Made by a program: the position numbers and the translations under genes. A stretch of DNA of 64,000 nucleotides from Marsupella aquatica (taxonomy: Eukaryota > Plantae > Marchantiophyta). Each line of letters opens with the position of its first letter. Positions within the stretch are counted from its first letter, which is position 1. This document shows positions 8,250 through 64,000 of the stretch, piece after piece. The notes beneath the pieces were generated by a model, which saw nothing but the letters and a program-made list of their open reading frames with translations, searched no databases and was not told where the DNA came from. The stretch lies in the NCBI GenBank assembly GCA_973895155.1, contig OZ316896.1:5407303-5471302 (forward strand). The letters run 5' to 3'.

Positions 8250-8279
8250 CGTATAATTAATAGCAGTCGACGTTCTTGG

Positions 8280-9503: not shown

Positions 9504-9538
9504 GTCTACTCTTTCTAGAGATCAGACCACTTTGCTCC

Positions 9539-10040
9539 CACGTAGCTTCTTCTGTGACCGCAAAATCCCCCGAATCTCACTGTGCCATTCTCATGGCTGC
9601 AGAAGCATGCCGTCCACTTCACCAAAATCAACCTCTCGTGACATCCTCGAAATACACCAGATTACTTTCCTAGCTCATCAAATCTCACTCTCACTTCTCC
9701 CAGACTCGAGGGACGTCAGAAACATCAAGTCAGGCACAAATCCATCCACTAGAAAGCAGACATCTCGCCATTGCCTTCGACAAACTATGAAAAATTCAAC
9801 GCAACTCCGCACTCACGTAGCTTCTTCTGTGACCACAAAATCCCCCGAATCTCACTGTGCCCTCTCGTGCCTGCAGAAAGAAGCCGCACACCTCTTCCAA
9901 AATTCTCTCGTCAACCTGGAGACACACCAGATCACCTCGCTCATAAAATCCCTCTCTCACTGCCCACACTCGCTCGACGTAGAAGTCACGCACCAACACA
10001 TCCACCGGGTAGCAGAAATCTCGCCATTGCCTTCGACCTT
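9539..10040. repeat. Diverged ~275-bp tandem duplication directly upstream of the F-box start codon
   Basis: 'cacgtagcttcttctgtgacc.caaaatcccccgaatctcactgtgcc' occurs at 9539 and 9814; 'atctcgccattgccttcgac' closes both copies. Confidence 0.8.
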
Positions 10041-10353
10041 CGTGCACAGTGCACACTTCGACAGCACAACCATGAAGAAAATTCAACGGCGACAACTCTC
10101 ATTATGTTGTCTGCGATCCAGCGAGCCTGCGTGAGTGCGGCACTGATGATGAAGTCACTGAGCGTGATCGACCGATGCTATAGAGAAGTACCAACTTTCG
10201 AGCAGAAGATCATTCTCTCGACACTTCGACAGGGCGGACATAGATGTACTGTGCGCATCGTAGCGTGTCTGGCGCAGGCGGGTGTATCAGATCTTCCGTA
10301 TACCCTTTACTGTAGCTTGTCACAGAATGTGGCGATCTGATGTCCAGACTACG

Positions 10354-36248: not shown

Positions 36249-37419
36249 CTGCAAAATGCCCACATGCACATTGTAAAAAAAATCAAGAAGGCAACAAGAG
36301 ACAGGTATTGTTACCTGAAATTTGGTGAAAGCACTTCAACACTTACCTGTTTTGTTGTGAGAATTGGTTGTGCATGTGCATTTTGTCTTTGATTAACACC
36401 CTTAGTTTTAGACGTCCCTACACCTTTGTCACGAAAGCCAGTGTATTCCCTGTATCGATTGTCATAGTGCCAGAAAGTATATTGACCCCTCGACCAAATG
36501 CCCATCAGGTAAACATGTTTCACCAGGGGACCCATCAAGCATATTAATCTGTCACTTGATAATAGAACTGATTCTTGTACTCCATCACAAGCAAAAGCAT
36601 AACCCAAGGTGTGGCCAGCTCAATAAGAACCGCTTCCAGCCGATTCTGTCAACTAGGAGTACAACTATGAGCATCCCAAATCCAACCACGCAAAGTTGTA
36701 AGAAAATATTTTGCTCAATACAGTCAAACACCGGGACAAGGAGACATTTTGACAATTTTAATGTTGGTTTTGGAGAAAATAGAATTCCAGTGCAATCCAA
36801 GAACGAGGAAAGTAATTTACGAAAAGCCCTTACCAGATATTTCTCTAGTTATTATTTGCGTGTAAAGTTTTGTAGAGATATTTGCAATCATCTGCTCGAC
36901 AGACCAGTTGATAGAATCTTGTAGCTCGGAATTCAAAGCTAGCAAATGCTAGCATGCCCCTTGTTGACCTGAAAAAATGCTTGAAGCCAATTCTCGAACT
37001 TCAAAATGCATCTGAATCATATTTATTTCATAGCGTGAAATCCAGGAAGAATCAAGATGCAGAACAACCCCGTTGGTAACTTCGGACTATAGTCACATCT
37101 ATACACTAAAGTTCCAATTTTCCAAGTACAAGAAACATGGATCGCAGCTGCACAAATTATGGGAAATTGTGGCAATCATCATTCGCTCTCTTGTCCTCTT
37201 ACAACTGCATGCGTCCCATGTATGAATACAATGCTAAAGTTGTTTGTGATCCAGTTCTCATAAATGATACTAGATGTAATAATAAACAAACTATCTAGTG
37301 ACAGGATGCTACACATGCAAAATAGACTCCTGTAGTTACTCAAACTCAAGTTAAAGAAATTTACACTTTTGATTGTTGTCATCTATTCTTTAAAACACTA
37401 CCCCAATACGCATGCGTTG

Positions 37420-37745
37420 CACGAAAGATGTCAAGGTGATAAAAAGATGTTGAGGTGATAAAAAGATGTCGAATGATGAAAAGATGTCGAGGTGACAAAA
37501 AGATGTCAAGGTGATAACGGGGGTGATAAAAATATGTCAAGGTGAGAACAATATTTCAAAGTGATAAAAGATGTCGAGATGATAAAAATATGTCAAGGTG
37601 AGAAAAAGATGTTGAGGTGAGCAAAAAATGTCAAGATGAGCGAAAGATGTCCATGAGAAAAAAGGTGTGCCGAGGAGATTAAAACATTTTGAGATAAGAA
37701 AAATATGTTTAGGCAAGGCACAAATGTAAAGGTGATAAAATGTGT
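37420..37745. repeat. Degenerate ~19-bp array (aaaagatgtc.aggtgat)
   Basis: At least 12 imperfect consecutive units are visible. Confidence 0.8.
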
Positions 37746-38329: not shown

Positions 38330-38512
38330 TTGTACCATGGTCGGCACCTATTTGTGGCCATTTGGTTTGCACCCACTTTTGTGGTCGGCACTCATTTGTG
38401 GCCAACACCCATTTGTGGTCGGCACCTACTTTTGCGTGCGGCACCCATTTTTATTGTTGACACCCATTTGTGGCCGACACCCGTTTTGTGGTTGGCACCC
38501 AGTTTTGGCCAG
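38330..38512. repeat. Degenerate ~19-bp array (tttgtggtcggcaccca)
   Basis: About 9 imperfect units. Confidence 0.8.
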
Positions 38513-38748
38513 GTGACAACCAATTTTTGTGCAATCTTCCACGCCCTGGTAATTGCCCATCTTGTGGTCGTTTTCCATGCTTTGGCCGTGTCCTGTTCAC
38601 TTCCAACACTTTAATTAGGTCTCCTTGTATATATAGTTACTTCTGGGGTGCTGCCACCCCCGGACCACGTTCAATGGCAGTATGTTTTTGGTCCCAAACC
38701 CAAAAATACACGGCATGCGCAAATCGTGACAGGAGTACTTCCGCCATG

Positions 38749-41624: not shown

Positions 41625-43595
41625 TACCTAATGTCAATATGCTTCACCGTGCTATTCATGACCAGGTTAATAGCTAGATGGAGCGCACTTTGGCTATCAC
41701 AATGAAGAGCCATTTTTCCATGCTCCAATCCCATCTTAGTGACCACCTATCCAACCAAATTGCTTCCTTTGTTGTTTCTACTATTGCAACATACTCTGCT
41801 TCTGTAGTAGACTGAGATACACACTTCTACAAGGTAGACCTACAACTTATGCATCCTCCTTCAAGAGTAAACATATACCCAGTCGTTGACCTCCTCTTTT
41901 CCATACAGCCTCCATAGTCAAAATTTACATAGCCAACCAAAGATTTGGTTGTGTCTGATTTACTATCAAACAACAAACCATAATCTATTGTGCCCTTAAG
42001 ATACTTGAGAATCCACTTCATAGCCTCCCGATGTCCTTTCCCTAAATTTGACATGAATCTACTCACTTTGCCCATTATTAGGGCTAGATCAGGCCTGGTA
42101 TACATCATCAAATACATTAGACTGTCGACTGCTTTCTCAAAAGAAACCTTAGTCATCAATCTCTTTCCACTAGATCCATGGGGTAAAAAGCCGATGATAA
42201 CTTAAAATGTGGAGCCAAAGTAATACTTACTGGCTTACAATTCTCCATGTTGAATCTTGCAAGTATCTTTTTAGCATGTTTGCCTTAATTCAGCCACAAC
42301 TATCCAATCTCAAAGTTCCTCGTAACCTCCATACCTAAGATCCTTTTGGCTTTCCCAAGATCCTACATTCATAATTCAAAACTTAGTTTTGCTTTGAGTT
42401 GTCAACCTTAGATTGATCCTTAGCCACAATCAACATGTCATCCACATAGAGCATCAAAATGAGTAAACCAAACACACCATTTTGACTGTTTTATATACAC
42501 ACAAGGATCATACACCATCCTAGTAAATCCTTGTGCAAGCATGAAATCATCAAATCCCTTGTTCCACTGTCGAGGAGCTTGCTTCAATTCATACAGACAT
42601 TTAAGCAACCTGCAAACTAAACTCTTTTGGCCCTTCTTCACAAAGCCCAGTGGTTGCCTCATGAAAATTTGTTCCTCCAAGGTGTCACAAAGAAAAGCAA
42701 TAACAACATCCATTTGATTTAACACAAGACCAAAAAAACACAACAAGTTGACACAAAATTTGTATTGTGGAGTACTTGGCAACTGGCAAGAAGACCTCAT
42801 TGTCATCCACTCCATTTTCCTAATGAATTCCTTGGTAACAAGCCTTGCCTTGTATATCTTGTCTCCTCTATCTGAAGAGTACATTATTTTTCAACTTGTA
42901 AATTCACTTGTTGTCCACCACTTGTTGATCACTTGGTAGCTTTACCAGCTCCTATGTCTTGTTATCACTTAAAGATTGCAACTCTCTCTGCACTCTTGCA
43001 TTTCATTCATTTGGTTGCCTCATCATATGAAGAAGGTTTTCATTCTCCCAAGATTAGTGCCCTATCATCATCTTCAGGTGAAATGTTAGCATTGTCTAAC
43101 CTTGATAAATACGTCCATTATCCATACCTTGTAGGAGCTCAAGTCGTACATCTTGATTTTCTAGCGGATAATTTTGGCTAATCTTGCATTGCTGGTAGAA
43201 TTTGAGGTATTCCAATAGTAACATGCTCCTCTTGTTCCATCACCGGAACCAACTCCATTATCGGAGCACCTTTTCAATTATGTCATAAAAATCCTCATGA
43301 CCAATCTCCCCCTCAACATTGTCCGGGATAGGAGATTTATCTTTGTCAGTACGGGAAGCCTGAGCATTCTCCCTCTCCTTTGATGATCTAGATTCATTAA
43401 AGGATACATTTACTGACAAGCAACGTACAAGCTTCTGGATCCCATAGCCTATAACCTTTCATACTTGTTTGATAACAAAGAAAAAAATACTTGTTGGAAG
43501 TCGGATCTAATTTAGATTGATTTTTCTTAGGTATGAGAGTATATGCATCACTTTCAAAGACTCTCAAAACGTGATAGGCTGCTTGCCGTCCATAC
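41625..43595 (-). pseudogene. Copia pol segment (integrase C-terminus, RT, RNase H), frameshifted
   Basis: LMYLMMYTRPDL, RRSTTGYMFTLEGGCIS, YDPCVY. Confidence 0.9.
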
Positions 43596-46500
43596 TGTAA
43601 GTAGGGGGTAATTCCAAAAGCATGAAGAAACTGAAATTTTTTAAATTTTCTATGGTGTTTAAACTATAATTATTGCTAACATAGCGAAGATAGCATTCTG
43701 TCTACAAGTTATGGGTTCCCAAGTCTAAGTTATAAACTCCTGTTTACGAGTTTACAAGTTTACGAGTTCCCGACTGTTTACTAGTTACAAGTTTACTAGT
43801 TAGGACTTAGGAGTTTACGAGTTATGCTTTACGATTTGGCGACCGGGGATCGCGACGTCTTACGGCTATATTCAACGGGACTTAGAAACGGAATGGCGAG
43901 TGTGCATTGAAGTGAAGGCAAGGTAGACCTCGGGCGCTCACTCTTGATTAAATCCCTACCTCCTCCATTGATCCTTTCGGCCTCCCCATCTCCTTGCGCT
44001 GCTACAAGACACAATTTGAGCTATGGATGGCTTGGGAGCTGATGAGCAGTACCGAGTTAATGTATTGGCAATTCCTAAGAGCATAGTCGCTCGAATTCCA
44101 CAAGCACCTGATAGTTATGCAAATTTACAGACTTCATTACAGCAGCTAGGTCTGGGGCATCTACTTGCCGTACCTTGGGACGTAGAACTCGACTCATACT
44201 TGCAGGATTTTGTGAAGGGGTCGCTACTTGCTCATGAATTTTGACAAACCATTCAAGCTCGGCCAAGTCTGTGGACTGTGGAGCAAATTGCTCGTGCCTT
44301 CCGCTGCCCTTCAGAAGGAGAAGGATTGTATTCAAAGAAGAAAGATTTGTCTACTCCCTACTTCTCTAGAATCCGCAATCTCACAAATGGCTGGAATCTA
44401 ACACAGTGTACTTATCCAGATTTGAGAGTGCTGCTGGAATTTCTAGTGCCAATTTTACACCCGAAAAAGCCAACCATTTGCCCAGTGGCTTTGGTGAACA
44501 CAATTGTAGCTACACACAGTGGAGCCATCGAAGTGAATTGGGCGATGTTAATTTTCAATGTGATGAAGGATCAGGTGAGGAGCATGAAGGCAGGTAGACC
44601 TACCTATCTGCAGGTATATTTGTCTCAGCTCTATCAGGCTTACGATTGTTTACATCCAGAGGAGAGAACCGAAAGAGGATTACTCCTGATCGAACTAGGC
44701 ATTGAAGAAGAAATTGGTGTGGAAGAACCAGTGGATGCTATTCCCCTGGATTCTAATGATCAGAATGTGGACGTTGATATGGATTTGGAAAATGCCTCAG
44801 TGGGTGAACTTGAAGTTTCATCTGCTCACGATATGGAGTTGTTTCGACATCCTCTCGTTAACTTGGTTTATTCAAGAGAAGTCAATGAGGAAAATCAACC
44901 TGGAGCTGAAAAAGCTTAGGACGACTCTGAGCAACACGAAGCTGTTGCTGACCTGACCACTGCTGTCATCCTGAGGGTTGATCCGACTACTACTTCAAAG
45001 GCAGAGTTCAACCAGCAACTTATTGATAAGTTAATTACTCTTTTCGGTTGTGATGATGTGGAACTCTATGATGTTGTTTGTAATTTAAGATCAGAGGTAG
45101 TCAGCTTATCATCCCCATTTCCAGATCAATTAACCCTTGTCAGGACCACCTCCCCTATTGTGGGGTCAGTCTTAGAAGAATTCGTTGCTCTCAATCCTAT
45201 TGCACCACCAAACCTGCCTGTAAAGCCAACTGAACCTGTCCCTATGACAGAGGATGTAAATTATGCTGCCATTGTAAACAATTTACTGGACATGCTACAG
45301 TGTGAGCCACAGGAGATAATGTCAATTGTTAGCAACTTAACTCAGAAATCCCCAGTTGCAGAAACTCCTCATAATCCAGATCCTTACTCATACAATCCTG
45401 ATTCAAACTATCAACCCACTGATGGACCTATCTTCACTCGGGGTCGCTCTGAAGATCCTTATGTTAGAAGGGATCTCTCTGATGACTCTGACCCGCCTTC
45501 GGATAATGATACTTATAGATCTTATGACAATTCCCTTGAGTCATCACCAAGGCAGGGGTTTGAAGATATTGATACAGCTTTGAGGTCAAACCCAAACCTA
45601 GTAGCAGTGGTTACGTCCTCTACTCAGACTCCCGGGAATGCTACTATCGAGAAGAAGTATCCCAGGCTTCCCCAGGCTCAAGTATAGAAGTATGTAGACA
45701 TCTCTAAGGTTATACATGCCAACATGCCACCAGTTGGAGAATTCTGGGGATACTATTACTTAAAGAAAACTTAGGCGAGCTATATTTTTGACCTAAAGTA
45801 TCATGGGACTTCTCGATTGGAAATGGCCCAGTTTGATGAGCACTGGACTGACTCTGTCTACTTCCGACCTATTCTGGCAATGATGTTGCTCCAAGGTGAT
45901 GTAGAAGTGGAGGATCCTGACCTACTCCTAGCCTACTTTGGGAATTTTGCAGCTTACGTTCTGGACTTCGTGCTTACTTTTCTCATGCAAAGTAAGAAAT
46001 CAACTTCTTGGTAGAACAACTACATCCTTAAGGAACCTAAGGTTATGCTGGTTTCAACCAGCACGTTGGCTGATAAGCAGAGAATCTGGGATAATATCAC
46101 CACTCACACTCTGGCCAAGTTCGATAGGTACTTTAAGGATGTTTGCTGGAGACTTTGACCTTTCTATTCGAAGATGATGAGAACTGAGGATTTCATGGCC
46201 TATTATTCCCAGGTTCATGCTGCTACCTGCAATCACTATGATGTGATTGGAATTTATAGGGAAGCACTCCGAATAGACTCTTGTTATTTGATGAGGAGAA
46301 TGCCTGTGATGTATCCAGATAGGCAACTGAGATGTTTGCCCTATTATCGAGGTTCACCACGACAGGCTGAGCTCATGGAGGTTATCCAATCAAGCACTGT
46401 CGCTTTTGTGGAACTTCTCGAAATCAACGACATTCAACACCGAGACTAAGGCAGAAGTCCTAAGTGTTTCTAGTTCGTTTAGAGTAGTGCATCTTGTCCG

Positions 46501-47647: not shown

Positions 47648-48924
47648 CATACCTCAATTCAAATGACGTCTTGAAATTGATTGGCACACTAGAAGGAGAA
47701 AGATTCACCAGATAAGCTATCATATTTACAACGTACTTCAGCCCAAAATTCATCTGGTAAACCTAATTAGCTCAACATACTCCTCGATCTCTCTAATAGT
47801 GTTTGGTTGAGCCACTCAAAAATACTATTTTGTTGAGGAGTATAAACTATTGTGAGATAGCAAGTAATCCCTTACTCTACACAGTATGATTTAAATTCAC
47901 CTGAAGTGTACTTTTTGTCGTTATCTTATTATAGATATATCACCTTGCTTCTAGTTTGATTCTTAACTTGGACTTTCCACTCCTTAAAAGTGGGAAATAT
48001 TTCAGACTGAGCATGTAGAAATGAGACCCACACATACCTTGAGTAATTGTCAATGAATGTGACATAGTAAAAAAATTTAGAAAGTGAGGGAGTTGGGGCT
48101 AGACTCCACACATCACTATGTACATACTCAAGTATTGCTTTGGTATTGTGTGTTCCAACACCAAAGGTTCTCTTGTGTTGCTTCCCAAGCACAAAAATCT
48201 AACTTAGAAGATTCCAAATTAGGAAGAAGTTCTTTCCTGTGAAGTACCCCCAAACCTTTTTCACTCATGTACCTCAATCTGTAGTACCACAACTGAGCCA
48301 TCTCGTCTTGAGATCTAGTTGTATTGGCTTCTTCACATACAAATCGCGTTGCTCTCCAACAAATGGAGATTATTATGCCGTTTACCCTTAAGGACAACCT
48401 TTCCTCTTATTGACACCTAAAGTACATCATCCGCAGAACTCCACTGATAATCATTCGCATCTAGCATTCCAAGAGAAATCAAGTTCTTTTTTATGTTAGG
48501 AACGTGTCTGACATTTCTCACTGTTTGCACAACTCCATCAAACATCCAAATTTTCACAGATCCAATTCCAACAATTTGACACAGGTGATTATTCCCCATC
48601 AACATTGAACTGTTTGATATAGAGTAAAAACTGAAAAACTCTCGTATATAGGAAATATGATAAGTACAAGCACAATCCAAAATCCATTCATCATTACCTT
48701 CTTGTAAAAAAGTGCAAAGAGCAACATCCTCACTTCATAAGATTGGATCATTGAGCATGTCTACATCATCGTCAACAGTGGCAATATGTGCAGACAATGG
48801 ATTATTCACCTTGGCTCGACAATCTTTTTTCATGTGGCCTACCTTATTACATTTCCAACATATAATCGGTTTTTTTTCTTGAGATTTTTCTCGAGACCTA
48901 GATCTAGATCTAGATTTGTCCTTG
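47648..48924 (-). pseudogene. Copia zinc knuckle, protease, GAG-pre-integrase and integrase core segment
   Basis: CWKCNKVGHMKKDC; WILDCACTYH; VRHVPNIKKNLISLG; LEYVHSDVW; YYVTFIDNYSRYVWV. Confidence 0.9.
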
Positions 48925-49630
48925 GGGAATTTACAAACGATAGCAAACAGATAACAGTAACAGCAAACAGTTACTATTATCAGCTAAAAGAAACTATTAC
49001 GAATGAATAGTGTTTGGCTAGCAGTGAACAGTGATCATGAAAAAGGGGATAAAAGATGCATTTCAAACTACTGGTATAGAAATCAAGACGATCAAATTTG
49101 CGTGAAAGGAAATTGGACTAAACGGAATCATGTATTTTGCAACAAATAAAACCGTCTCACAATTGAGATAAACAAAATCCGAGACCAATATATGTCAAAA
49201 TGCGCAGGGGGAAAATAAAATTGTCATATATAATCGCAAAGTACAAAATGCGTTCGGCTCAGGTCCTAAAAACGCACTTATAAGTTAAAACCTGCAGGCC
49301 TAGAAATCCGATATACAGAAGCCATGGTCGACCCCGGCTGAGGATTGCCAATAAAACAAAAGCAGCGCTCGGCGCTAGCCAACAACTGCAGGAAAAACTA
49401 TGGAATTCCTGAAGATAACAATCGGGAAAAACCCTAACAACTAAGCCGAGGGCGACTCCGTTCCGAAACATCAAAAGAGCTTAAGCACTGCTCGGTGCTA
49501 GCTTTAAGTGATCACCTAACTGAACAATGCGATGTCGTTCTTCATGAAAAACTGGAGGAACAACAAATAAGTGATTGCATCTAGCTTTCAGAGTTGCAAT
49601 CATCCTCCACTCCTGCCGCTTCTCTCCTCT

Positions 49631-49657
49631 CCTAAACCCTAAACCCTAAACCCTAAA
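49631..49657 (+). repeat. Short plant-telomere/telobox tract (CCCTAAA)x~4
   Basis: cctaaaccctaaaccctaaaccctaaa. Confidence 0.8.
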
Positions 49658-50094
49658 TCCAAGACCACGCAATCGAATGTATCTCTCAGAAGGACCCCGA
49701 CGCACTGCCTCGTAAAACCTTCATTGGGAATATTATTGTCCTTAAAGTCAACTTGCCCAAACATTTCTTGAACTCTCCTATCGATTGGCAGTACACCATC
49801 AACAGGAACAGCCTGATGAGACTAGAACCTGCTTGCGAATGGGAGCGGAGGAGAATCGATGATCCATGGGATGTTCTTTTCTCCAGGACTAATAGCCTCA
49901 TCATACGGTAGAGCGTGATGGTTCCAAAAAGTAGAGGTTTCAGTCTCTTTAGTCTCCATCCGTGACTCAAAAGAACTGAAATGGCTCTCTTCCGGACGCA
50001 CACGAGAAGGGAGGAACGCTGCCTCCCAATCCATGAGCTCATCGTTTCTCTCCATGTTGAATAGAGCCCGATCAAGTGTCAACTTCCCATCTAA

Positions 50095-50480
50095 CAAAAC
50101 GCAGAAACTGTTCGCAAAAGGTCCGCAAACGGTTGTGGGTTCGAAAGATGTCGTTCGCAAAAAATATCTCCCACAAAACATCCAAACTGTATCTTCCGCA
50201 AAAGGTCCGCAAACGGTCGTGGGCCCAAAAACTGTCGATCGCGAGATTTGAAGTGCGCAAAAAGTGTCGTCGGAGAAAATGGTCGTCGGTCCCAAAACAG
50301 TCGTCGATCCCAATACTTGTCGTCCAAAAATCTCCATGTCTTGACACTTGGTCGGGCTCAACAAGATCTCTCCATGTTGATGTTGTCCGAAAGATCTCCA
50401 AAAATGTTGTCCGAGAGAGATGCCATCAACAAGAGATCCGAAAATGTTGTCCTAGAGATCCAAAAATGTCGTCCGAATAC
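50095..50480. repeat. Degenerate repeat array inside the MULE
   Basis: 'cgcaaaaggtccgcaaacggt.gtggg' occurs twice and 'aaaatgt(t/c)gtcc..agat' several times. Confidence 0.7.
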
Positions 50481-50804
50481 AGTCCATGGGGGTTTCCTTG
50501 GCAAGCTAACGGACCCAAATAAAATGGCCGTATCCAAAATGTATAATATACTATGTCTTTCCTACTATTTGTCTCATTATGATGACCGTTGGTAGGACAC
50601 GACAAAGACCAAACGACCATGTTACACAAATAAGAGCTGGAAATATTCGCTTTATGAATCATCATTTGGCGAGCGCCTTGCGCTTGTAAAAAACACAAGT
50701 AATGAGACATTAATTTATAAGGACCCAATGAGAGGATTTGAATACAAGTTGGTACTAGCGCCAGGCGCTAGTAAAAAATTTCTCCCTAAATTCCTCAATA
50801 CGTG

Positions 50805-53800
50805 TCACAATTCTGCAGATTCAGATTCGGAACCAGAATCTGTACTCTCGGATTTGTCCGTGGACACAGCCTCATCATCTACGTACTAGCTGCGGGAGAA
50901 GTCATCAACATAAGGATGTTTAATGAACTTCCTGTCAACACCCCTTCGTAACCAAAGACCTTTGTTTCCCAGCAAAGCGTCCTTGTACTCTCGGCTTTCC
51001 TTGCGGCTTTCTCTGCATAGGAGGGAAGAACAAAAGGTTTTTCTGGTGTTTCTATGTTGTGTCTAGCAACCCTCCTTCGCAGTTTGAAACGTCTCCTCGC
51101 ATTCCACTCTGACCTGATGAAACGAAATCCAGCAAGTTAGGTGCCTTTCTCCAAAACAACACATAAATGTTATAAATTGATGGGAATGGAGAAAGAAGCT
51201 TACGAGTTTATGAACATTACTTGGAAGAGTCATCGCTATCGATTTCATCTGGAGATCCACGAGGTTCTTCCTTTTCCTCCTCCGAGTCCCCTGTACCTTG
51301 TGTCCTCTCCATCTCCACCTTGACTGGACTCATCATCAGAATCAAAATTGAGTACCGACTGAAGCTTATCTTGCTTCTTTCTGTTAGCAGTAGGAACAGG
51401 TGGAGGTAAAACCGCAATCTCTTTGGGAGACAACAAATCCATGAAAACCTTCAAAGCGGTTTCAATAAATTCTTTTTTATGTTCTATCCCAAGCACAAAC
51501 CTCCCGGAGAAGTCTCCAGCAATGAAGGAGCTTCCAGCCCCAGCGGTCCAATCCATAAAAATATCACAAGGTTGGGTGACAAGCTCAATGACAGATTGCA
51601 TAAACCCGACAGACAGGCGAGCATTTCCAGCAAACTCCATTTGCGAGAATGGATTGGATTTGAGAGAAGGGAGTCCGATCAAATTGGTGACCGAGGGGTC
51701 CTCACTGATGGAGAGTGGACGGAATTTAGGGTCTTTGGGAATTTTACATTTCCCATTAATTCGACCAAATATGTCCAGCCTGGGGGTAAACATCTGCGGA
51801 AAGCAATCCCAAGTGTTAGCTGGCAACTCCAGGTTACACGAGTTTTAACTCAAAACGCGATATAGTTAAGAGTAGATAATTACCTGATGGTCTATCTTTG
51901 CCGCGTACATCGGGACAGACATTACAACATTATGCGTGCATATGCACTGAAATTTTCTCGACTCCTGACAGGCAGCAATGACTTGAGACATGGGATCATA
52001 CTCCCCATTGTGTAGAATTGCAAGAAACCCATCATCTGATAGAAATGGATCCATGGATTTGAAAAAAGATCTAGCCATGGAGTGATCTGGAGTGTTCCAT
52101 TTAGGAACCTTCTTATCTATGATCGTTGGTTTGAACCCGGTCGGTAGGTAAATGAAACCCGCATCCACTCCAAAAAATCTTTCTTTTCCGCCCGGCACAA
52201 CACCCTTCTCTTTATATCCCGACTTAACGAGATCCTTCCCCACTTCTCCACATTACTAACCCATTCAGGTTTTTCCCCCTTGTTGAAAGTCGAGTCAAAA
52301 AATTCGGATAGGCTTGTCTCAACCATGGCATGACGAGACACTCTAGTTTTGAAGTTTACAACTTCATGTTGGACACCAAATGCTGCAACACTCTCCCTTG
52401 AAGAAGGTCCATGTACATTCGATAGCTCTCTTTCATTTCTTCCTGGTACTTGTGGCGTCGACCGGAACTATTACCTTCCCCTTGTCGACAAGAGTAATGG
52501 GGTCCGATCGAGCTCCGATGTTTGCTTCAGAAACTTCAGGTGTAGCATCCACTTTAGTATCTCCTATTCCCGCAGTATTAGACTTCCTCCCTCCTAAATT
52601 ACCAATAGGTCCAAGTTAGAATAAGTAAATCCCGAGTATTCAAACAAGCTAGCGCCAAGTGCTAACCAAATGCAAATCACTTAGGTTTCAACAAAGGCCT
52701 AAGAATCTAGAAAGAAATGTGAATTCGCATGACAGTTCTAGCCAGCGCCAGGCGCTGGCCAAATTATGGAACACTATACTCACTTTTCCTCCTAGATTTT
52801 GTTGACTCGCTTGGTGTTGCTAACTCTGCTTTTGCTTTTGCTTGAGGTTTGCGACTTCGGTCCACATGAACAATAGTTGTTTCACAGATACTTTGCAAGT
52901 CTATGGCAGACTTGTCTACATTGTCTAGCAGGCCTTGCTTCATGTCAAACACAATTTTTGCTGATATGTGGGACTTTGAAAGCTTATGGAATGCATCTTT
53001 CTCCCTTTGATCAAAAAGAGAATCCCATCTATCTATATCTAGATACCAGGGGCAGTGAGTTCTCTCCCATTCTGTCATAGGTCTCGGAGGAAATATGCCC
53101 TCCGCTGGGTACATGGAGTACAAATCAGCTATGGCGTCATCCTCACTTATTGTAATCCACTTCATGAAAGCTGCAGGATATGCCCTGAAGTAATCAGGTT
53201 TGGTTACCTCCATGTGCATGTAGAACCTGTAAAGATACCTTTTAGCCCGCTTCTGGTTTTTCTGGGTGTAGTCTTCTTTGTCTGGATACTTTGAAGGCCA
53301 CATAGTGTGAAAGAACTTACTCTTCATAGAATCACCATATCTCTTGAATTCATTTGTAACAAACTGAACGAGATCATCAAACGAACCACAATTCCACTCT
53401 TCTAATCTAGTCGCGGGCATCGTCTGCTCTACTTCACGCAGACATGAATGTAACATGCCGACAACAATTCCCTCTACACTATTCCAAGTGATCCAAGTAT
53501 GACACCATTGTTTGACTGGGTCGTTGTTAACACTTGTTGGGTGGAAAAATTATCTCCGTAGCTCAGGATTGCAATATGCCACAAGTAGGATGCTTTGCAA
53601 CTTTGGGTCTAGGGCAAAAACAATAGTGAACAATCGGGCGCGGTCCATTGTACATACGACGGTGTCAGGCTTCTTCTCTCTCTTGTTTCTCTCTGACAGC
53701 ATACATTTATGCACATGTACTGAGAAAATCTTCAAATTCAGGACTTAACAAGGGCATGATTTTTGAAGACTTCACTGCCCAGTCTTTGGTTGCATCCTTC

Positions 53801-55048
53801 ATCATGGCCGCATGCCATTTGGAAATCTCGTCCACTGACCAGGGACTCCCTTGAGCCTCGGCTGCCTCCATGTCAAGCTTGAATTGGTGCGAATAGGACC
53901 TTAATTATCTTATTCTCACATAGAATGTAAACAAGAGCTACTTGTGGCATCTTCTTTGTATACCATGACCCCTTCCAAGTCTTCAGCCGAATGCTCTCAA
54001 ACTTCTTGAAATTGGCCGGGTCAATCAGTTTACTGTAATACTCAAGGTCATGCGCCAGAATTTGTTTGATTCTATCTGCATCAAGGATCCAGGATGGCTC
54101 AACAACGGCTTGGCCAAGCCTACACAAAGAGACGCAGCGAGTTAGAGTCAAAGTACAATTTATCTATAACCAGCGTCGAGCGCTCTTAAATAGAACACTC
54201 GCAAGATTCAAAGAAGGAACTGGAAAAGAACGAGAACTTACTGATTCACGGTGTGCATAGCTACCTCAATTTCAATAAGAGATCCCTTAAATATTGTGCA
54301 GAGCACTCGAGGATGGTATTTTGGATTGTTTGGGTTCTCCTCGGTAACAAGCGTCCATGAGTACAGCCTGTGATTTCCATCAAAGACAGAACATCTTATC
54401 TTTCAACACGAGAAAATCTAGGTCGGCCTTGCATTCAGCCTCAAACTTCTTGTTCTCCAATTGCCAAATTGGATCCCATGAATCACAAATCTCCTGGGTA
54501 CAGGTCAGAACAATTCCATTCTCATCCGTTGGCTGCACATAGAAATGCATTCCTATGGATGAATTGTAACCCATACTGCGAAACGAGTCTTTCAGCTTCT
54601 CGATGGAAGAGCTGTCTTTGTGCAAAGTACGAACCACCTCCATGTGAACCAATTGGCATAAAGGGATTCAAGGCGGCTCCTTGTCAAATCCACGAGAATC
54701 CTTTCCAAAACACATGACGTGTTTTGAGATGAGATCAGTCTTCGCGAGCGCGCAGTTTGAAACATCCTGGATCGCAATCGTGTCGAGGTTCTCCATCTTT
54801 CTACGCAGAGATTTAGGAACCAAAACAACGCTAATAGAAGTAGGAGGCAACAATTTTGTGGAACAAGTTACACGACGTGTATAAACTAAACTAGTAAACA
54901 AAGACTGCAAGGATTCAGAATAAGCTCGCTCCTGGTCAGGAAGTGCACTATACCCTCTAGATGAAGAGGGGAATACCTCCATCATCTTCCTTCCAGAAGC
55001 GTACAAACTATCGTACAATGAAATTATGCACCTCTTATCAACTCTCAA
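50805..55048 (-). pseudogene. MULE cargo gene: ParB/Srx-like N-terminal domain, helical region, beta-class N4C/N6A DNA-methyltransferase-like domain, acidic tail; intron-containing and frameshifted
   Basis: IEKLKDSFRSMGY...VFDGNHRLYSW (54381-54367). Motif-IV-like GVDAGFIYLPTG...W...FLSDDGFLAI precedes motif X/I/II-like RLSVGFMQSVIELVTQPCDIFMDWTAGAGSSFIAGDFSGRFVLGIE. GT-AG introns at 54120-54241, 52594-52783 and 51794-51883 are phase-consistent. Confidence 0.7.
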
Positions 55049-55790
55049 CGTGTAATATATTCTAGAAGGAGGGTGGAGTTTAGCGGAACTCTTCGATTAA
55101 AGCGAGAAGCTGGTAAGTTTGGTGGATTCCAATGTATGTTTGCGGAGAACTTAATTAGCTAAATCAAGCGGTAGAAAAAGCGTAACACACACGGAACTCA
55201 TAAGTTACCGTTAAATGCTACCGTTATGACCGTTTTCCTCCCTCACTTGGAATACTAGCGCCGGGCGCTATTATAAACACCTTCCCCTTGAGTAGATAAT
55301 TGGGATGATTGTCATGGCAGAGCCCGGCGCTAGTAAAAACAACAGCTATAAAATAGGTCTGCAATGGTGGCTCTAGTACATAAATTTTGTCAAAACAACC
55401 CCCATATTTAAGGAAATGTCTATTGTTTTAATGGTTTTTGGGAAACATTACTTGCATCCTATACTAGCGCCCGACACTAGTGAAAACTAGAATTTTTCAT
55501 CCATAATTCTGAAAGAATTCACATTTTCATTGACCATTTAAATCCAATTACCTCATAGTATTGATGTATATTCGGTGAGTTTTTTCTATACTAGCGCCAG
55601 GCGCTAGTATGGAATATCGAGATTTGGGGCACATTATGTTTAAGGTATTTTAGTTAGCGCCAGGCGCTACTCAAATTGTTCCGACTATGCAATATCTTAG
55701 GGTCGGTTAAAGATTTTTGTGGTGTCTTTTTTGGCAGTATGTATGCGTCTGACATCTGGACTTATTGGGGAAAAACAACAAAATTCATTT
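55049..55790. promoter_or_regulatory. Divergent intergenic region with five TAGCGCCnGGCGCTA-type palindromes
   Basis: Copies at 55253-55273, 55319-55331, 55462-55482, 55588-55610 (perfect 23-bp) and 55655-55669 lie between the two head-to-head genes. Confidence 0.6.
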
Positions 55791-57539
55791 ATGGCGCCAA
55801 CGGATCCTATGTCGACTATGTTTTATGTCTTATACAAACGGATCTGTTAACGTGAAGTTCCTAGGTTCGACAAATATAAGCTCCATATTCCCATAGACTT
55901 TTCTTCCTCGAAACATTACAGCCCTCGATATTTGTTTTCGATTGCAATGTCTCGGTCCAACGTTCTATCCCGATTTGGGACTGGGGATATTGTGACCATC
56001 CCCGTCCTTGTGCAAGACACGTACAAGCAGGTCCAGGATAGATACCTTTGCGGGAGATTTGATTTGAAGATGAATGATATTGAGGCCATTGATCGAGAGC
56101 TTGAAACCAGTGATGACATCGAAGATGTTGCAACATTCAATGTGGATGATGGTGAACAGTTTTGGCATCTATATGCAAGGATTTTGTACTCACTTTGAGT
56201 AAGACAACATGAAGGACTATCCAGTGTCTCCCAAGTTCCATTTGATGTTGTCGAGATTTCTTTTAGTGAAGATGGAGATCACACTCCAAGTCCTATGTTG
56301 AAGATGAAAGTCCCGCAACATGCTGTCATTAAAGGTGAGACTCCAGGAAGCTCCAACCAGTTGGAGGTCGTGTATTGGTGGAGTGCAATGGATACGTTAC
56401 TCAAATCCACTGGTCATAGCGAGTTATCAAGGTTCATATCAGCGGGTTATTTCAGACATGAGCAAGTCTCCTGTCTGCCAACTAAGTATAATGGGAATGT
56501 CGTGTTTGAATTGCCACCGATTGACAAGATGCTCTCTAAAGGCTCTAGGCTTAGGGACATGGACCGTGCCAAAGATTGCTACATTTGGACACGCATATTT
56601 CCAACTACCATGAACGTTCAGCCAAAAAAACTTTGGCAATTCGGTAAGGTTACCTGTACGGGATTTATTGAATGTTAGAACAAGTCCTGCGAGTACTTCC
56701 AAAGGAAGAAGAAGGCAAATGCTAAGGCATGGCAGGGTACTCCAAAGCTTAGTGGGCAATATGTTGTCGGATCTTTTATCGAAGAGGGCGGTCTTGTGTG
56801 TCATTATTGTGATCAGATTCCTTTTTGTGTCAAGTACTGCCCTGCCCGTTTGTTCTATATGTACCCGCAAGTATTACTTGATGCGGAAACATGTAGTCAT
56901 ATGTCCCGCCTGGCGATTCATATAGGTGAGCATAACCATCCAGGTAGAAAAACCTTCTCTAGGAGTGCGGAGAAGATGGCTGAGGATTTAATTTTAAAAA
57001 ATCATGAAGCCAATCCTCTGGCAAAACCAGCTGGGATCTTGAATTATGCTACAAGGTCCATAGTGAAAGCTCTCTGCGAACATGTTGACGACATGGTCGA
57101 TATTGAAGAAACTGAAATATGGAAGTCTCTGATGGTACTTTCCACTCCCCAGAAGTTTGCATCTCTTTGTCGGAGCGTTAGGATAGACCAAAAGGGTCGG
57201 GGTGAACTAGATTTTCTCTTGCAAATGCAGAAGAGGATTAACCTGTCATTTCTCCAGAGGTATTTTCTCCCGGGTCAGGGATGTCAAGACAACAGGCCTC
57301 ACATCTTTAAAATGATCACAAAGGGTCACGGTTCCGGTGTGGATCTTTTGAGACAGATGCAACCGGGTGGAAGACTCGAAGGAGCCTGGGTCAGTTTCGA
57401 TGTGATGCAGCGTATCACAACCGATTGGTTTACTTTTAGCGTGCATGTCTACGACCATAACTTCCGTGCACTTTGTACAATTTTCACATGCAAGTTGAAA
57501 GGTGAAGACACTGAGTCTTTCGAAAAGGCTTGGAGAGTT

Positions 57540-59905
57540 TGTGACGCCGATGACATGGTCCTTATTCTATAATCTGAGTAAGTAGGTTGCTGTATGCAAG
57601 GAGTAGCTATTGATATTGCATAACAATTAGCAAGATGGCAAGAACAAGGGCAATCATGGCGTTGAGTAGGGAAATAAAAGCTATGTCGCGGGTGGTCGGC
57701 GACCATATCTCTTTCAATACGTCACCAAATCCAGATCTGTAAAGAGCATTGGAAAGATCTGGTCAAGGCGAGTAAAATTGATATAAAACACTTGAGAAAC
57801 AGAGGTGTATTAAGAAAGATACGACCTGATTAGTGTGACAGGTTAACTTGTGGCCAGAATGAGCGGATTCGGTTTCGGGTTAACCTAAGCTGAGGCTACG
57901 GCTTAGCTTATGAGAGCTCGGATTCAGCTTAGCTCAGGTCAACACGGCTTCAGCTTAGCTCAGGTCAGCATGGCTTCAGCTTAGGCTTAACCCGGGTTCG
58001 GGTTATATTGAGCCCGGGTTAGACTGAACTTCGATTAACCTAAGCTCGGGTTTGGGCTCAGCTTAGCCTAGGTTAGCGGATAGCGGGTAGCGGCCTAACC
58101 CGAGACCATGGGTTAGCTCTACTCGGGTTAGATAGGATAGCTAGGTTAGCCAAACTCGGGTTAGCTATGTAACTCGGGTTAGCGCAGCAATGAGTACCCT
58201 CTCTCGGTTGTGGGGGCATAACTCTCTGTGTATTTGACCAAATTGGCTATAATTGACCTCGTTGGAAAGAGAGCTCAAGCCGCTTCCAACGCTGCTATCC
58301 ACGCTGAAAATGGTTGAATAGAGAAATCGGGAGAGGAGGCGCAAGCTCGCAAAAACCATGGAGGAGGGCCAAATCCGAAGTACATAGCCAATTCGAGATA
58401 GAAATAAAGTTGCAAGTTAGGGTTCAGTAGTTAGAGATAGTGGCGGCTCTGTTAGGGTTGGGATGGGGCTCCAGCAACGTAGTATCCACCGATTTGGGCT
58501 CAGTATGAGAGTATATAGAGCAGCCCCCGGTAGAGGCAAGGGGGGGGAACTTCAGTTGTGTGATCTCACTTGGATTGAGCAGCAGGGAGGAGCTCTGTGC
58601 AAGGAAGGCTGGGCTTGGAAGCTGTGTGTTGGGGAGAGCTTGGTTGTGCTATTACTCAGGGAGTAATCAGCCACGCTTCACAGCAACAGTTGGCCAGGTT
58701 TGCAAGCTGGATTGTGGCTCTTTCTAGTAGGCAACACAACTGGGTTCTTTCCCCCAATACAAAGCCTTGGTGATAGGTGACGTGTTGGTGATTGTAAACT
58801 GTGGGGAGGATTTCAATGTGATTTGCGTTGAGCACATTAGGGAGGCTGAGATACTGATTGAGGGGCAGCAGGAGGAGCATTTACAGTTTAGTCTGGCAAG
58901 GCTACGTGATCCATGGGGAGTCCCGGCCTTTGTTTGGTAGAGAGCACTAAGGGATTTATGGCCAGAGCTGAGCTTGCAGGGCAAGCATGAGGTCGGGCCT
59001 CATTGTAGTCTGGGGTAGATCGCCGTTAGGCCTGGTGCCAACTTTGAAGTCAAGTCAACTGTGCATGCGTAACTTGACATTCTGAAGTGGAGGTGTGAGA
59101 TCTGTATGTGCCCCCAAGAATGAAGTGCAGTGAAGGAGGTTGAGTTCAGGATTGAGTTTGCAAGGCAAGTACGGGATTGGTTCGAGTCCAATCTGCCATT
59201 GCAATCTGGAGTGAGTCGGGCTGAGGGTCAGGATTGAGCTTGCAGGGCAAGCACGTCGCAATCTGGAGGAGACAGCCTTCGGGCCTATTGTTCGGATCAA
59301 GTGTTCTCAATGAACTATTGTGCACATCTTTGAATCTAACTGAGTTTTCCTCTCAGGCCTCATTTCTCTCATGGATGTGTATGTGTGAGAGGCAATCTGA
59401 GTGTATGATGGGACTAGCAGGGCCACTGAGAGGTGTACCGGGTGCATTGAAGTGGGTTGGGTGAGGGCTGTCACAGCTCTGATTGCTGAGAGTGGAATGC
59501 CAGAGTGGTGGGGCAATGGTTTAGAAGTCCCTAAGCCGGGAATCAGTTAGGAGTCACTGGTTTATGGGTACATTCCGGCAACGAAATAGAAATATATCTA
59601 TGACAGTAAGCATACGTATAGACATATGCACACCATAGCACTAGGCCCTGTGTGTATGGGCCCGACATGAAGACCCCTTCTCACCAGAACTATCATGAGC
59701 ACAGGATGTGATTCCCAACCTTGGTTCTTAGGGATTGAGCTTGGGTGATGTGTGACGGAGTCTTGCTATGATAGTCTGGTGTTAAGGGCATAAACTGGTG
59801 TTTACCGGCCTTACAACATCCCTTCGTGATCCTCAGGTACAAGGAGATGGTTTTGGCACCCATAGTGACGTTTTTGGTGTTAAGACCCATGTCAATCGCG
59901 TGACA
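57540..59905. mobile_element. Solo-LTR-like insertion D (2366 bp) inside the transposase
   Basis: Imperfect terminal inversion TGTGACGCCGATGACATGG ... CCATGTCAATCGCGTGACA; 5-bp TSD gagtt at 57535-57539 and 59906-59910. Excision restores AWRV-MIEV in frame. Confidence 0.9.
57865..58182. repeat. Low-complexity ttagct/cgggtt array inside insertion D
   Basis: Repeated cgggtt, ttagct and ttaacc motifs. Confidence 0.75.
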
Positions 59906-62790
59906 GAGTTATGATTGAGGTTTGCAAGGAGAATGGATTACAAGAGGTTGTCATCCAAGGGTTTATGGCGGATAATGCACAAGCTGGATGGAATGTTGTG
60001 CGTAATGTTTTTTTTGGTGGACACCCAAATGCGGAGAGGGAGCGCTCTGATCCATTTCACTTTTATCAATCTTTCCATCGACATTCCAAGGAAGGAGTAC
60101 TCAAAGAATGTCAATCAAAACATCGGAGACTTTGGGAGAAACTAAGAAATGCTCCAACGTTTGTGGTAGCATATCGCGTGTCCCGAGAGATTGTGGTTTG
60201 GTAGCAATCAGGAAACTGTGTCCCTGGAAAGCTCATGATGCTACAAAGCTGGATATCCTGGTGGGTTGTTTGATGGCGCCAGTGGGGCAATTTTATTCGA
60301 GTGGTATGACATCCATCTCCTCTCTTGTCTTTCATTTTCATCAACTTTATATTAGCGCCAGGTGCTGGTATGATTTGCTCGTATCTTACACGTAAAAACC
60401 AGGAATACAATACATTGAGTCCAACATGTCCATAAAGTTCCAGAATCATAATTGCAATTGTATTTCACGTATGTTATACATACTTGTCGGTGCCAGCGCC
60501 AAGCGCTGGTAATACAATGCTAGTACTGATTATTGCATTCGGACTATGGCAAAGCAAAAGCGCAGAAGAAGGTGCCTTGATTCCCAACTGTACAGGGTCA
60601 GAATCAAGGCATGTGTCGATGAAAGCGTGGGCTACAAAGAAACAAGTTGGTCTTTTTTAAGCATGCAAAGTTGACCGAAATTGAGCCCTGTCTCAAGTTG
60701 CGGGATACAATGCATATCGGAAGGGTTGAACAGAGGAAAGGGGCCAACTATATGGGAATTGGCATTCCGTTCCGCCAATCAAGCAGGTTTGCCAAGGTTA
60801 TTTGAAGATGCAACCAACATACTTTGATTTGGAAAGAAGTACTCCCCTTAACGGAGATATCGTGACCAAGTCAATGAAGAGAAAGGGACATGCAACTAGG
60901 ACTGTCTCTCCACAAGACTCCCATCGGCATGACACCGTTCTCATAACCACACCAAATACTCGTGGTTTGAAAAGGAAAACCTAAACAGAACTGACTTTGC
61001 CTCCATTCCCTCTAATTCTAATGATCCTGTGACAAGAGTGGTGAATCTCTCTGGCATGGACACATCAGATGGTGATACTGATTCACTGGACAATACCCCT
61101 CAAACAACCCGTACAACAAGATCCACAAAACCTCCACTCAGCCCCAGCCTCACTTCAGAATCCACTTCCACGCACGATTGTGCTAGAGAAGGATGTCCCT
61201 CTTGGGCAGTGGCAGTTGCGACGGATGTCCAAGTATGGAGCAGGTCCCCAGTGTAATGGGACACTCAATGGGAGTTCTGATCACGATGAGTGTCGACATC
61301 GTATCAAGAAGGTTGGCTTCCATTCGTCTGACGGTGTTGTTGGAATTGTTGTGAAGGGCCATCATCTCTTCAAGGGCGAACCCATCTCCGAAATGATTTG
61401 GTTCTGCCCAAACCAAACCTGTTATAAGAGTTGTTTGCGTCGTGGTGTTCATCAGCTTCCTCCTTTTCCTGAAATTTTGCCTGTTCTGAAGGGTACGAGC
61501 GTATCTCCTTCTGAAATCACGTTCCTCGAAGAGCAAGGACTTGTCTTAGCCCAAACAACAGGATCGAGTCAATCTGCGCCATCTTTGTTTGAGCTCAGGA
61601 TAAATGTGAACGTGTTCCCAGAAACAATAAGGTTTTTGGAGCCAAATGTCCGGCTGGGTAGTCGGAATGGGAGGAACTCAAGACCTCGATCTAATCTCAC
61701 TCACTGTGGGTCACACTAAGCGAATGGAGTCTGCACGACAAGAAGAGATGAGTTTGGATGGGGAATGGAATGTTTCGACTGGAAATGCTTTTGGAAAGGA
61801 ATTTCAAATTTGAACCCATGAGAACCTTCGATCCCCAAGCACGTACTTTGTGCAATTTTGTATCTTCCCTGCTTGCTCTTGTGAGGACTTCTTCCAACGA
61901 CATTTGCGTGGCAAGTCGTACATGCCTTGTAAACATCTATACTGGGTGTACATAAATGTTTTCAAACTTGAGGTTGAGGAGTCGACTCTTTGTAGCCAAC
62001 CAATTTTGACTGTGGGCGAAGTCAGGCTTGTCTTGGAGAGGCAGAACTTGAATGGCTTATAATAGAGGCCGAAACTTCCGTATAGGTCGTTCAATATAAT
62101 GGATAGTCACTATTTTGTCTTTACCCAACGGATATTTTACTTGTTTTATTCAAAATTGTTTGGTTAGCGCGGGGCGCTGCTTCCAGAAATCTTACTTTTC
62201 TTGCTTTATTATGTACGCGTGTAGTGTAAGCATTACAACATGTTTTATTTAAAATGTGTAAGTTGATATCATTATGTTTTATCTTTAAAGCCGCGTTTAT
62301 TCAATTATTCTGAAAAATATAGTTATCGCTAGGAGGTGTTTTGTCATTTGTTTGTCACGATACACGGTCCATTTAAGTGAACTCATTTTGATTGAGTTTA
62401 TTTGGACACTACTCTTCACTTGTTCTATGGTGGGTCCCACCCTAAGGTTCACTTTTTAGCTTGGACGAATAGTGATATTTGAATGAATGTTTCATTGAGT
62501 ATAGTCCCAATACCGTGTTCAGTTATCTTCTACAACAAAATGTTGTTGCAAGGGAGGATTGCTAGTACTCTTCATCCATCGGATGGCACAAAATAATTGT
62601 TTGTTTTAAACCTAATTCACTAAAGCAAAATTCTGTGATTAGCGTAGTTTTTCATTCGAACCAAAGGGCTATGGTTGATGCAAAACTGGTAACAGGGAAT
62701 CGCTTACTAGTAACAGGTAAAATTTGACTGTTAACAGCAAAATATCTCCTGGTAACAGGTTTTCTGTTTTCTGTCATGGCTATCATACCC

Positions 62791-63280
62791 TTTGTCCTTG
62801 TCTCTATTCTTATTCCATGATTTGCCAGGGGTCATAGTCAAAGCGGTTCCTGAGGAACTAGATGGCATAGAGGACGAGACCATTTTTTGTTGTATGTCAT
62901 TAGTCAGCAAAACGCTTATAACCTCATTATAGGTGATAGTTGACTTATCACGATGAAGTAACACTCTTGATAGAGACTAATAGGATGCAGTCAAAGAACT
63001 CAAAAGATAAAGTGTTTTTCTCTCATCAGTTAATTTCTCTCCAAGATTCAATAAAGTTGCAACGAGATCATTGAATGGATCAATGTGATCTTGAATCTTG
63101 GTGATTTTATCCTTCATCTTGAAACTCATTAGTTTCAAGGATGTATAGAGCCAATTAAAAAGCTACATGTGATGGTATGTTTGTTGCAACGTCGTGAACA
63201 AAGAGGTGCATGATGAATGGTCATCAAGTTGCTTGATGATATGAGGCTGGAGATACTTAGAGTTAATGATACTCATACCT
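62791..63280 (-). pseudogene. Copia gag (UBN2-type) remnant
   Basis: LMSFKMKD..IQDHIDPFNDLVATLLNLGEKLTDE...LLSSL..SY.SL..VLLHRDKSTITYNEVISVLL. Confidence 0.85.
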
Positions 63281-64000
63281 TGGGAATTGAGAGAACTAAG
63301 AGGGAGGAGCGAGCGGAGCGCTTTTGGTGGTTTGGCTATGGCCGCTGACCTTCGGTGGACTCGCTATTGCGCCCTGTCTTCCTTGGCGTTAGACGGATCG
63401 TGAAAAAGATTCAGGTATGGCTGCCCTTGCTGTAACGCGAGCAGGACCTTGACAGGATTTGGGCTGGCAAAACATGATCTGAGCGGAAACAGAAGACTGA
63501 GCAGGGAAAAACTGGGAAGCAACGCGCTTAGATCCGGGATACTCTTGGAGAAAGTGGTGCGTGAACTGCTGCCTCGAGTGGTAGTTTTAGCTTCGAGCAT
63601 TGGAAAACCAATCACTCTGTGAAGCAAAGGCTGCTTTATCTTCTGCTTTTGCTTTGCACGGTGGGACCATTCCGGCTGGGGCTTTTGCAAGCGCTCTGAG
63701 TGTGTTTAGATTGACGCTGATAGCTTGAGATACGATCTGACTAGATGGAACATTTCAGGAGTTTGGGGATGCGGACACGAACCAGCTATGGTCGGGGTTC
63801 GGGGCGTGGGTCTACTTTGTATTTAGAGGTCGGCTCTTTTCACGGGAGTCGGACGATGGAGGCTGCAGGAAAAGGACGGGCTACATCAACTCTGAATGCA
63901 AACACCATTACAGTAGTGGATAGGGGCAGACGTATAGGTGAAACAGCAGATAACACAAGATTCTCTTTACAAGATGCTAGGGGCGGACTGAAGGCTGCTC

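Follow-up and report, generated by a model that had tools for sequence, protein, structure and literature searches.

Can a DNA transposon carry, beside its transposase, a regulator that recognises the transposon itself? The question is raised by a stretch of 64,000 nt of contig OZ316896.1 from Marsupella aquatica, which was analysed as a whole and is called the window; all positions given are positions within it. The window contains a Mutator-like element (MULE) with two divergent genes, one for a transposase and one accessory gene. We give about an even chance to the reading that this is a decayed two-gene Mutator-like transposon, whose second gene encoded a self-recognising regulator of ~1,200 aa with a ParB-like, a helical and a methyltransferase-fold part, binding the element's own 15-bp palindrome TAGCGCCNGGCGCTA and probably not acting as a canonical methylase. 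This reading is built on the bounds of the element, the head-to-head layout of its genes, the spliced and multi-copy accessory gene, the homology of its S-adenosylmethionine (SAM)-binding half, the tetrapeptide YLPT at the best register of the catalytic motif, and the position of the palindromes in non-coding DNA. Binding of the palindromes by the ParB-like and helical domains, and a role of the methyltransferase fold as a binding module, are proposed from these observations.

Bounds and Genes of the Element

48915-48923, + strand: left target site duplication (TSD), 9-bp TTTGTCCTT, inside a copia gag; gag frame in the empty site; zinc knuckle on the left flank
48924-62790: Mutator-like DNA transposon, 13,867 bp, GGG...CCC ends, degenerate inverted termini of ~100 bp
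55791-62061, + strand: broken transposase with a Cys/His-rich N-terminus, FDV...ADN...DPFH...SESRH and a SWIM-like CxC...CxH C-terminus
57540-59905: probable solo long terminal repeat (LTR), 2,366 bp, TG...CA, 5-bp duplication GAGTT, splitting the transposase catalytic core
62791-62799, + strand: right TSD, 9-bp TTTGTCCTT, pairing with 48915-48923

Membership of the MULE superfamily was judged by a TSD of 9-11 bp, G-rich inverted termini and a DDE transposase with (C/D)xxH and SWIM motifs. The 9-bp TTTGTCCTT and the GGG...CCC termini agree with the first two of these features. The inverted 100-bp ends are degenerate and score 59, a value reached by 0 of 500 shuffles (best 53). When the flanks are joined with the element removed, the copia gag frame is restored up to the zinc knuckle, which on the left flank matches PF00098 at E=9e-6, and the insertion is therefore regarded as real. 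Another 9-bp duplication, GAGGATTGC (49340/62554), was set aside as a TSD, since ~10 such pairs are expected by chance in the search space and gag is not restored by it. The element reaches well past 50805-55048, the interval singled out at first, and subtracting the solo LTR together with one copy of its TSD leaves 11,496 bp.

The transposase gene begins ~800 bp from the start of the accessory gene and is divergent from it (head-to-head). Its residues FDV...ADN...DPFH...SESRH were read by eye and are what we take to be the DDE-like Mutator signature. In Pfam the transposase gave SWIM at E=0.79 and no MULE match, and a PDB search gave no meaningful match; the TSD and the ends are therefore the main grounds for the MULE assignment. 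A probable transposase intron lies at ~60301-60597.

Structure and Copies of the Accessory Gene

The accessory gene is encoded on the - strand, and its exons amount to ~3,670 nt or ~1,220 aa:

54242-54985, - strand: exon 1, ParB-like helix and DGNHR box with an insert of ~50 aa between them; stop at 54670, frameshift at ~54390
52784-54119, - strand: exon 2, conserved domain of ~445 aa; frameshifts at ~53900 and ~53590; stops at 53709, 53667 and ~53552
51884-52593, - strand: exon 3, linker and N-terminal half of the methyltransferase-like fold; frameshifts at ~52415 and ~52240; stop at 52435
51221-51793, - strand: exon 4, SAM-binding half (51619-51482, region of motifs X-I-II) plus an acidic tail
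50805-51113, - strand: probable fifth exon, its tail basic at first and acidic further on; TAG at 50888; splice sites assigned with less certainty

Three GT-AG introns that keep the phase were identified (54241-54120, 52783-52594 and 51883-51794), and another one probably spans 51220 to about 51114. In the six-frame translation, the ParB-like helix VRTLHK...MGY lies at 54634-54566 and VFDGNHRLYSW at 54387-54355, one frame over. VDAGFIYLPTG was located at 52168-52136, with YLPT at 52150-52139 in the position of motif IV, followed by the motif VI-like FLSDDGFLAI at 52045-52016 and by RLSVGF...GIE at 51619-51482, all on the - strand. The reading frame is interrupted by in-frame stops at 54670, 53709, 53667, 52435 and 50888, by one more near 53552, and by at least five frameshifts. 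Because of these stops and frameshifts and the LTR inside the transposase, this copy is dead. The sequence-only reading had described a spliced - strand gene with several frameshifts and stops inside a TSD-bounded MULE, and on all three counts it was borne out, with every peptide it quoted located.

An intact relative of exon 1, P0066, was the single match from 40 candidates (E=1e-62, 57% identical). Its frame stays open across the positions of the stop at 54670 and of the frameshift at ~54390, and its end coincides with the splice point of exon 1. For exon 2, 58 matches were obtained at E<=1e-3, 24 of them at <=1e-10, among 1.84 billion protein representatives clustered at 50% identity; several are open reading frames covering the whole exon, and one of the 58, the repeat protein P0057, is spurious. 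Two of ten exon 2 relatives looked up are named proteins of the liverwort Calypogeia fissa. Word-indexed protein searches for longer relatives, which are weak evidence, returned none with exon 4 and none with the exon 2 alignment at 980-2795 aa. When metagenomes were scanned with the exon 2 alignment, 17 pattern matches were returned and 0 relatives.

Parts of the stretch are present in five sequencing runs under three organism labels, and no RNA run is among the matches listed. In four of the runs, 453 to 10,153 contigs fit 49500-63000 (5550 in run X1 and 10153 in run X2); they are mostly <99% identical, and 30 of 30 bins are covered in all four. Most related contigs do not contain the 4-nt insertions at 53901 and 52413/52417, and most have CAG where this copy has TAG at 50888, so that these lesions are specific to this copy. 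The comparison of these sequences supports the accessory gene as a conserved multi-copy family and not a stray fragment.

The ParB-Like Part

For the ParB/Srx fold, a helix ending in G(Y/F) is expected, followed by a (D)GxxR box, a strand and a helix, and the motif pair of exon 1 agrees with this. When the two ParB motifs were scored in order with a free gap, the score was 31.3, a value that 0 of 1000 shuffles reached (mean 11.7, highest 27.8), and five control proteins scored 7.8-10.9. P0066 gave no match in Pfam, NCBIfam or PDB and no meaningful tblastn match to phages or plasmids, and its single-sequence AlphaFold model was uninformative (predicted local distance difference test, pLDDT, 32). 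For a 95-aa piece of exon 1, an identity as TRAPP, suggested by ESM Atlas clusters at 0.91, was weak and of low recognition, and was rejected. The resemblance to ParB/Srx claimed at first is thus upheld for the motif pair and not for a profile or structure, and the assignment is supported by the two-motif test, with neither a Pfam nor a fold match behind it.

The Helical Middle Domain

An intact relative of exon 2 was modelled from a 63-sequence alignment and is predicted to be all helical (pLDDT 88; predicted template modelling score, pTM, 0.84). No Foldseek match at E<=1e-3 was found for this model in PDB or BFVD, and the best VIA Z was 5.3, on generic helices; this does not establish a new fold. 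No Pfam family is common to the 63 members, and none of them has a VANC-like Pfam match.

The Methyltransferase-Like Part

Exon 4 matched PF01555 at E=5e-4 (20.5 bits, below the cut-off of 26.7), Helicobacter pylori DpnA at E=2e-4, PRK13699 at E=9e-4, and six PHROG methyltransferase families. On a profile of 11 phage enzymes it reached 47.5 bits, these enzymes having themselves been found with exon 4 as query. The C-terminal SAM-binding motifs X-I-II of the beta-class N4C/N6A family are present, motif I in an atypical form (DWTAGAG versus DPFxGSG). These alignments support exon 4 as the SAM-binding half of a beta-class amino-methyltransferase.

For exon 3, a hidden Markov model (HMM) alignment and a block scan both align VDAGFIYLPTG with motif IV and LSDDGFLAIL with motif VI, in the permuted order. 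The catalytic tetrapeptide in this best register is YLPT, which differs from the pattern (D/S/N)PP(Y/F/W). Of the 11 phage enzymes, 8 match the pattern and 2 more have DIPY; Marchantia DN4MT1 has TSPPY. Variation around motif IV was surveyed at 52095-52205 in four runs (6, 33, 12 and 5 contigs), counting variants at >=15%. Six such variants were listed, four being synonymous third-position changes inside DAGFIYLPTG and two being conservative and outside it, and YLPT was unaltered among them in 4 of 4 runs. Since all six are synonymous or outside YLPT, this tetrapeptide is apparently the family state, under selection, rather than a product of decay. In P0030, a distant protein from a liverwort, the corresponding residues are SVGT.

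In rotifer N4CMT, substitution of the first and last residues of SPPY, giving APPA, abolishes activity (PMC8885841), and inactive transposon-borne adenine methylases have been described for DIRS1 elements (PMC4738411). YLPT at motif IV, taken together with the loss of activity in N4CMT, would make a pseudo-enzyme more likely than a canonical writer. Of the beta-class N4C/N6A methyltransferase proposed by the sequence-only reading, the SAM-binding half stands (on PF01555 and DpnA) and the catalytic motif does not. Its idea of a methylase marking its own DNA is made doubtful by YLPT across related copies, at the positions essential in N4CMT.

Palindromes of the Element

When <=3 mismatches are allowed, the palindrome TAGCGCCNGGCGCTA has 14 matches in the window, against an expectation of 0.38; the element contains 13 of them, and 4 are perfect:

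49363-50770: three copies (49363, 50671, 50756), from the 3' end of the accessory gene towards the left terminus
52650-52757: two copies, intron 2 of the accessory gene
55256-55669: five copies (55256, 55318, 55465, 55592, 55655), between the divergent genes
60353-60508: two copies, probable transposase intron
62165: thirteenth copy, beyond the transposase

All 13 in-element copies are outside the approximate coding intervals (binomial P about 2e-6), so an element motif is enriched in non-coding DNA here, as in VANC-type systems. No copy lies <400 bp from either end of the element, the nearest being 49363 and 62165. Five cores are CCAGG and one is CCGGG. In P0002, a 35%-identical relative and one of 66 stored proteins, translation past the end of exon 2 gives LAPGAS, in which the palindrome is visible; the LALALA ending of P0013 was not counted as such. 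Two loci from a scan for TAGCGCCNGGCGCTA, one on a bacterial-looking contig and one on a 1-kb contig unlike the element by eye, were taken as chance.

VANC21 has been described to bind introns, intergenic and terminal regions of VANDAL21 (PMC5735166). ParB proteins bind inverted repeats, and in Bostrychia inverted repeats adjoin the ParB-containing PAG3 (bioRxiv 2025.02.11.637652). By analogy with ParB at parS and with VANC on the non-coding motifs of VANDAL, the palindromes would serve as loading sites for the ParB-like and helical domains. The methyltransferase fold may have been kept as a SAM- or DNA-binding module, which could cover CG/CHG sites or hold the shared promoter open, and expression and transposition would be favoured in this way.

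Weighing of the Alternatives

Several observations weigh against a self-binding regulator of this composition. The ParB blocks were picked with the query known, so that the support from the two-block test is good but not independent. With a plain HMM of 16 phage ParB N-termini the score was only 2.0 bits, which 14 of 2000 shuffles equalled or surpassed, and hhalign reached 34%, a weakness due to the ~50-aa insert which parts the two conserved blocks. Exon 3 scored -1.9 bits on the HMM of phage methyltransferases, with 256 of 1000 shuffles as good, and in its two-block test 148 of 1000 shuffles were as good, so the register of motif IV is not statistically secured. The homology of the liverwort protein P0030 around motif IV is weak as well (pairwise E=1e-3). 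Among the contigs listed for the four runs, none spans both coding regions, and linkage to the transposase is therefore seen directly in this copy only. The proposal that a transposon has adopted a ParB-methyltransferase as accessory gene is accordingly upheld as far as a multi-copy spliced family in a bounded element is concerned, while the linkage has been seen in one copy. The TAGCGCCNGGCGCTA copies could also be transposase sites. A related reading, in which the palindromes would be sites for the transposase or passively amplified motifs and the accessory protein a structural helper or scaffold of transposition, is considered unlikely. It draws on the AtMu1 transposase, which alone binds and hypomethylates its own element (10.64898/2026.08.24.746577), and on the Cys/His-rich N-terminal region of the transposase here; it is opposed by the distance of the palindromes from the ends and by their clustering at the shared promoter and in introns, as reported for VANC and not for terminal binding of a transposase.

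An active but atypical amino-methyltransferase, writing N4-methylcytosine (4mC) or N6-methyladenine (6mA) on its own element, for example on the CCWGG/GCGC core of the palindrome, and thereby blocking host silencing by 5-methylcytosine, was the mechanism first envisaged, and we judge it somewhat unlikely. The well-preserved SAM-binding half (47.5 bits; DpnA) would suit it, purifying selection appears to act around motif IV, CCSGG is the site recognised by the closest bacterial relatives of N4CMT (PMC8885841), which bears on the CCAGG and CCGGG cores, and the algal homologue is predicted to write 4mC or 6mA (PMC12477816). However, neither (D/S/N)PP(Y/F/W) nor DLPY occurs at the aligned place in the family of the window or in P0030, 10 of the 11 phage enzymes have that pattern or DIPY, N4CMT is inactivated by the change to APPA (PMC8885841), and motif I is atypical. 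Closer to the preferred reading of a self-recognising regulator, and improbable to our judgement in its full form, is a bacterial-style ParB/parS system on the transposon itself, loading at parS-like palindromes in each non-coding part of the element and spreading as a nucleotide-gated sliding clamp that would carry a SAM-binding pseudo- or non-canonical methyltransferase and shield the element from host silencing. The one-off capture of an ordinary host gene (Pack-MULE) would be compatible with the linkage seen in one copy and with relatives annotated as genes in Calypogeia fissa, but thousands of divergent contigs cover both genes, the palindromes sit in the introns of the accessory gene and recur in the 35%-identical relative, and the gene is whole and multi-exonic and no fragment, which leaves very little room for it.

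Comparison to Known Systems

In the brown alga Ectocarpus, the element Sola1-1_Ec32 carries a 1104-aa ParB-like and N4C/N6A-methyltransferase gene opposite to its transposase (Dinatale et al., PMC12477816). According to this work, such proteins may form a class of accessory protein not recognised before, and related ones are present in green and red algae. Both there and here, one protein of ~1,100-1,200 aa with ParB-like and amino-methyltransferase-like parts is encoded on the strand opposite to the transposase of a large DNA transposon, and targeting of the own element is proposed; the Sola1 protein is proposed to bind and modify its own element. The systems were compared by layout and domains. 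Sola1-1_Ec32 has a 4-bp TSD and a 282-bp terminal inverted repeat, whereas the element described here is Mutator-like, has a 9-bp TSD and belongs to a land plant; it differs further in the likely catalytic motif YLPT and in its dispersed non-coding palindromes. The implication of the sequence-only reading that the concept was new thus falls, since a transposon accessory gene with ParB and N4C/N6A-methyltransferase parts was already described in Ectocarpus.

Petroll et al. reported PAG2 (PF01555 and SET) and PAG3 (ParB and 2-oxoglutarate oxygenase) in Plavaka and Chondrus Mutator elements (bioRxiv 2025.02.11.637652). There also, ParB-like and PF01555-type domains occur on DNA transposons, including Chondrus Mutators, and inverted repeats adjoin the ParB gene. 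However, PAG2 and PAG3 keep the methylase and ParB domains apart, each joined to a different partner, and the inverted repeats there are arranged in tandem. The accessory gene described here fuses the two domains, with a helical stretch of ~445 aa separating them, and the palindromes of its element are scattered. VANDAL elements with VANC likewise combine a Mutator-like element with an accessory gene, and a short motif is concentrated in their non-coding DNA, namely in introns and in intergenic and terminal regions (PMC5735166). In contrast, VANC motifs are tandem repeats, and hypomethylation has been demonstrated for VANC, while motif binding is predicted for the protein described here.

Phage ParB-methyltransferase fusions at terminase loci (Javan638 QBX31436; PMC4738411) have the same order, ParB_N followed by N6_N4_Mtase, and a homologous SAM-binding half. 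The phage protein differs in having 418 aa, an intact DPPY, no ParB insert, no helical middle domain and no introns. Marchantia DN4MT1 and rotifer N4CMT likewise have a bacterial-type permuted amino-methyltransferase fold in a eukaryote; in contrast to the family described here, they are domesticated host genes with SPPY and demonstrated 4mC activity, and ParB is not mentioned in the excerpts of either text.

The concept is hence known from algae, and new here are the land-plant Mutator setting, the family-wide YLPT, the helical domain, unmatched in the structure searches, and the candidate 15-bp target. In the literature compared, no land-plant ParB-methyltransferase transposon gene was found; Iyer et al. 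2011 (PMID 21507349), to which green-algal versions are credited, is outside this comparison and might affect what counts as new. Among transposon accessory proteins, self-targeted anti-silencing has been tested for VANC and TnpA, while the ParB-methylase genes have so far been a prediction from algae. Through this family, their range comes to include Mutator-like elements of land plants, and a confidently predicted helical domain of ~400 aa, for which no structural match was found, is added. With TAGCGCCNGGCGCTA as a candidate target, the idea of self-binding becomes directly testable, and the family also cautions that the methylase of ParB-methylase accessory proteins may be a pseudo-enzyme.

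Other Features of the Window

In run X2, a contig joins 55668 to 62205 (21 letters on the short side) and skips the entire transposase between two palindrome-bearing regions; it is perhaps a deletion derivative retaining only the accessory gene. The solo LTR has a contig depth far above the rest of the element, indicating a very abundant family, and contains internal 26-33-bp tandem repeats at 57901-58183. In the left arm, ~4 copies of the plant telomere-type unit CCTAAAC at 49631-49657 are possibly a telo-box promoter. Also there, on the - strand at 49686-50451, frames without stops, 209 and 130 aa long and containing short tandem repeats, have no Pfam match and are possibly a third gene or a captured fragment.

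The host of the insertion is a decayed copia-type retrotransposon on the - strand (47900-48923 and 62800-63300), with gag, zinc knuckle, protease-like and integrase-like reading frames around the insertion and more pol fragments at 41800-43700. The ratio of observed to expected CpG is 0.63 in the accessory gene (50805-54985), 0.70 in the transposase (55791-57539), 0.53 in the solo LTR (57540-59905) and 0.39 in the host copia (47900-48900), a weak hint, confounded by age, of less methylation-driven decay in the element. Elsewhere in the window, a 1.4-kb element resembling a miniature inverted-repeat transposable element lies at 13561-14936, with 79-bp inverted ends (92% complementary) and a related copy near 4738-4923. 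Degenerate 17-19-bp tandem repeat arrays occupy 37416-37740 and 38338-38521. At 44245-45687 on the + strand, a nested element with two long stop-free frames (224 and 255 aa) lies between similar repeats at 43743 and 46676.

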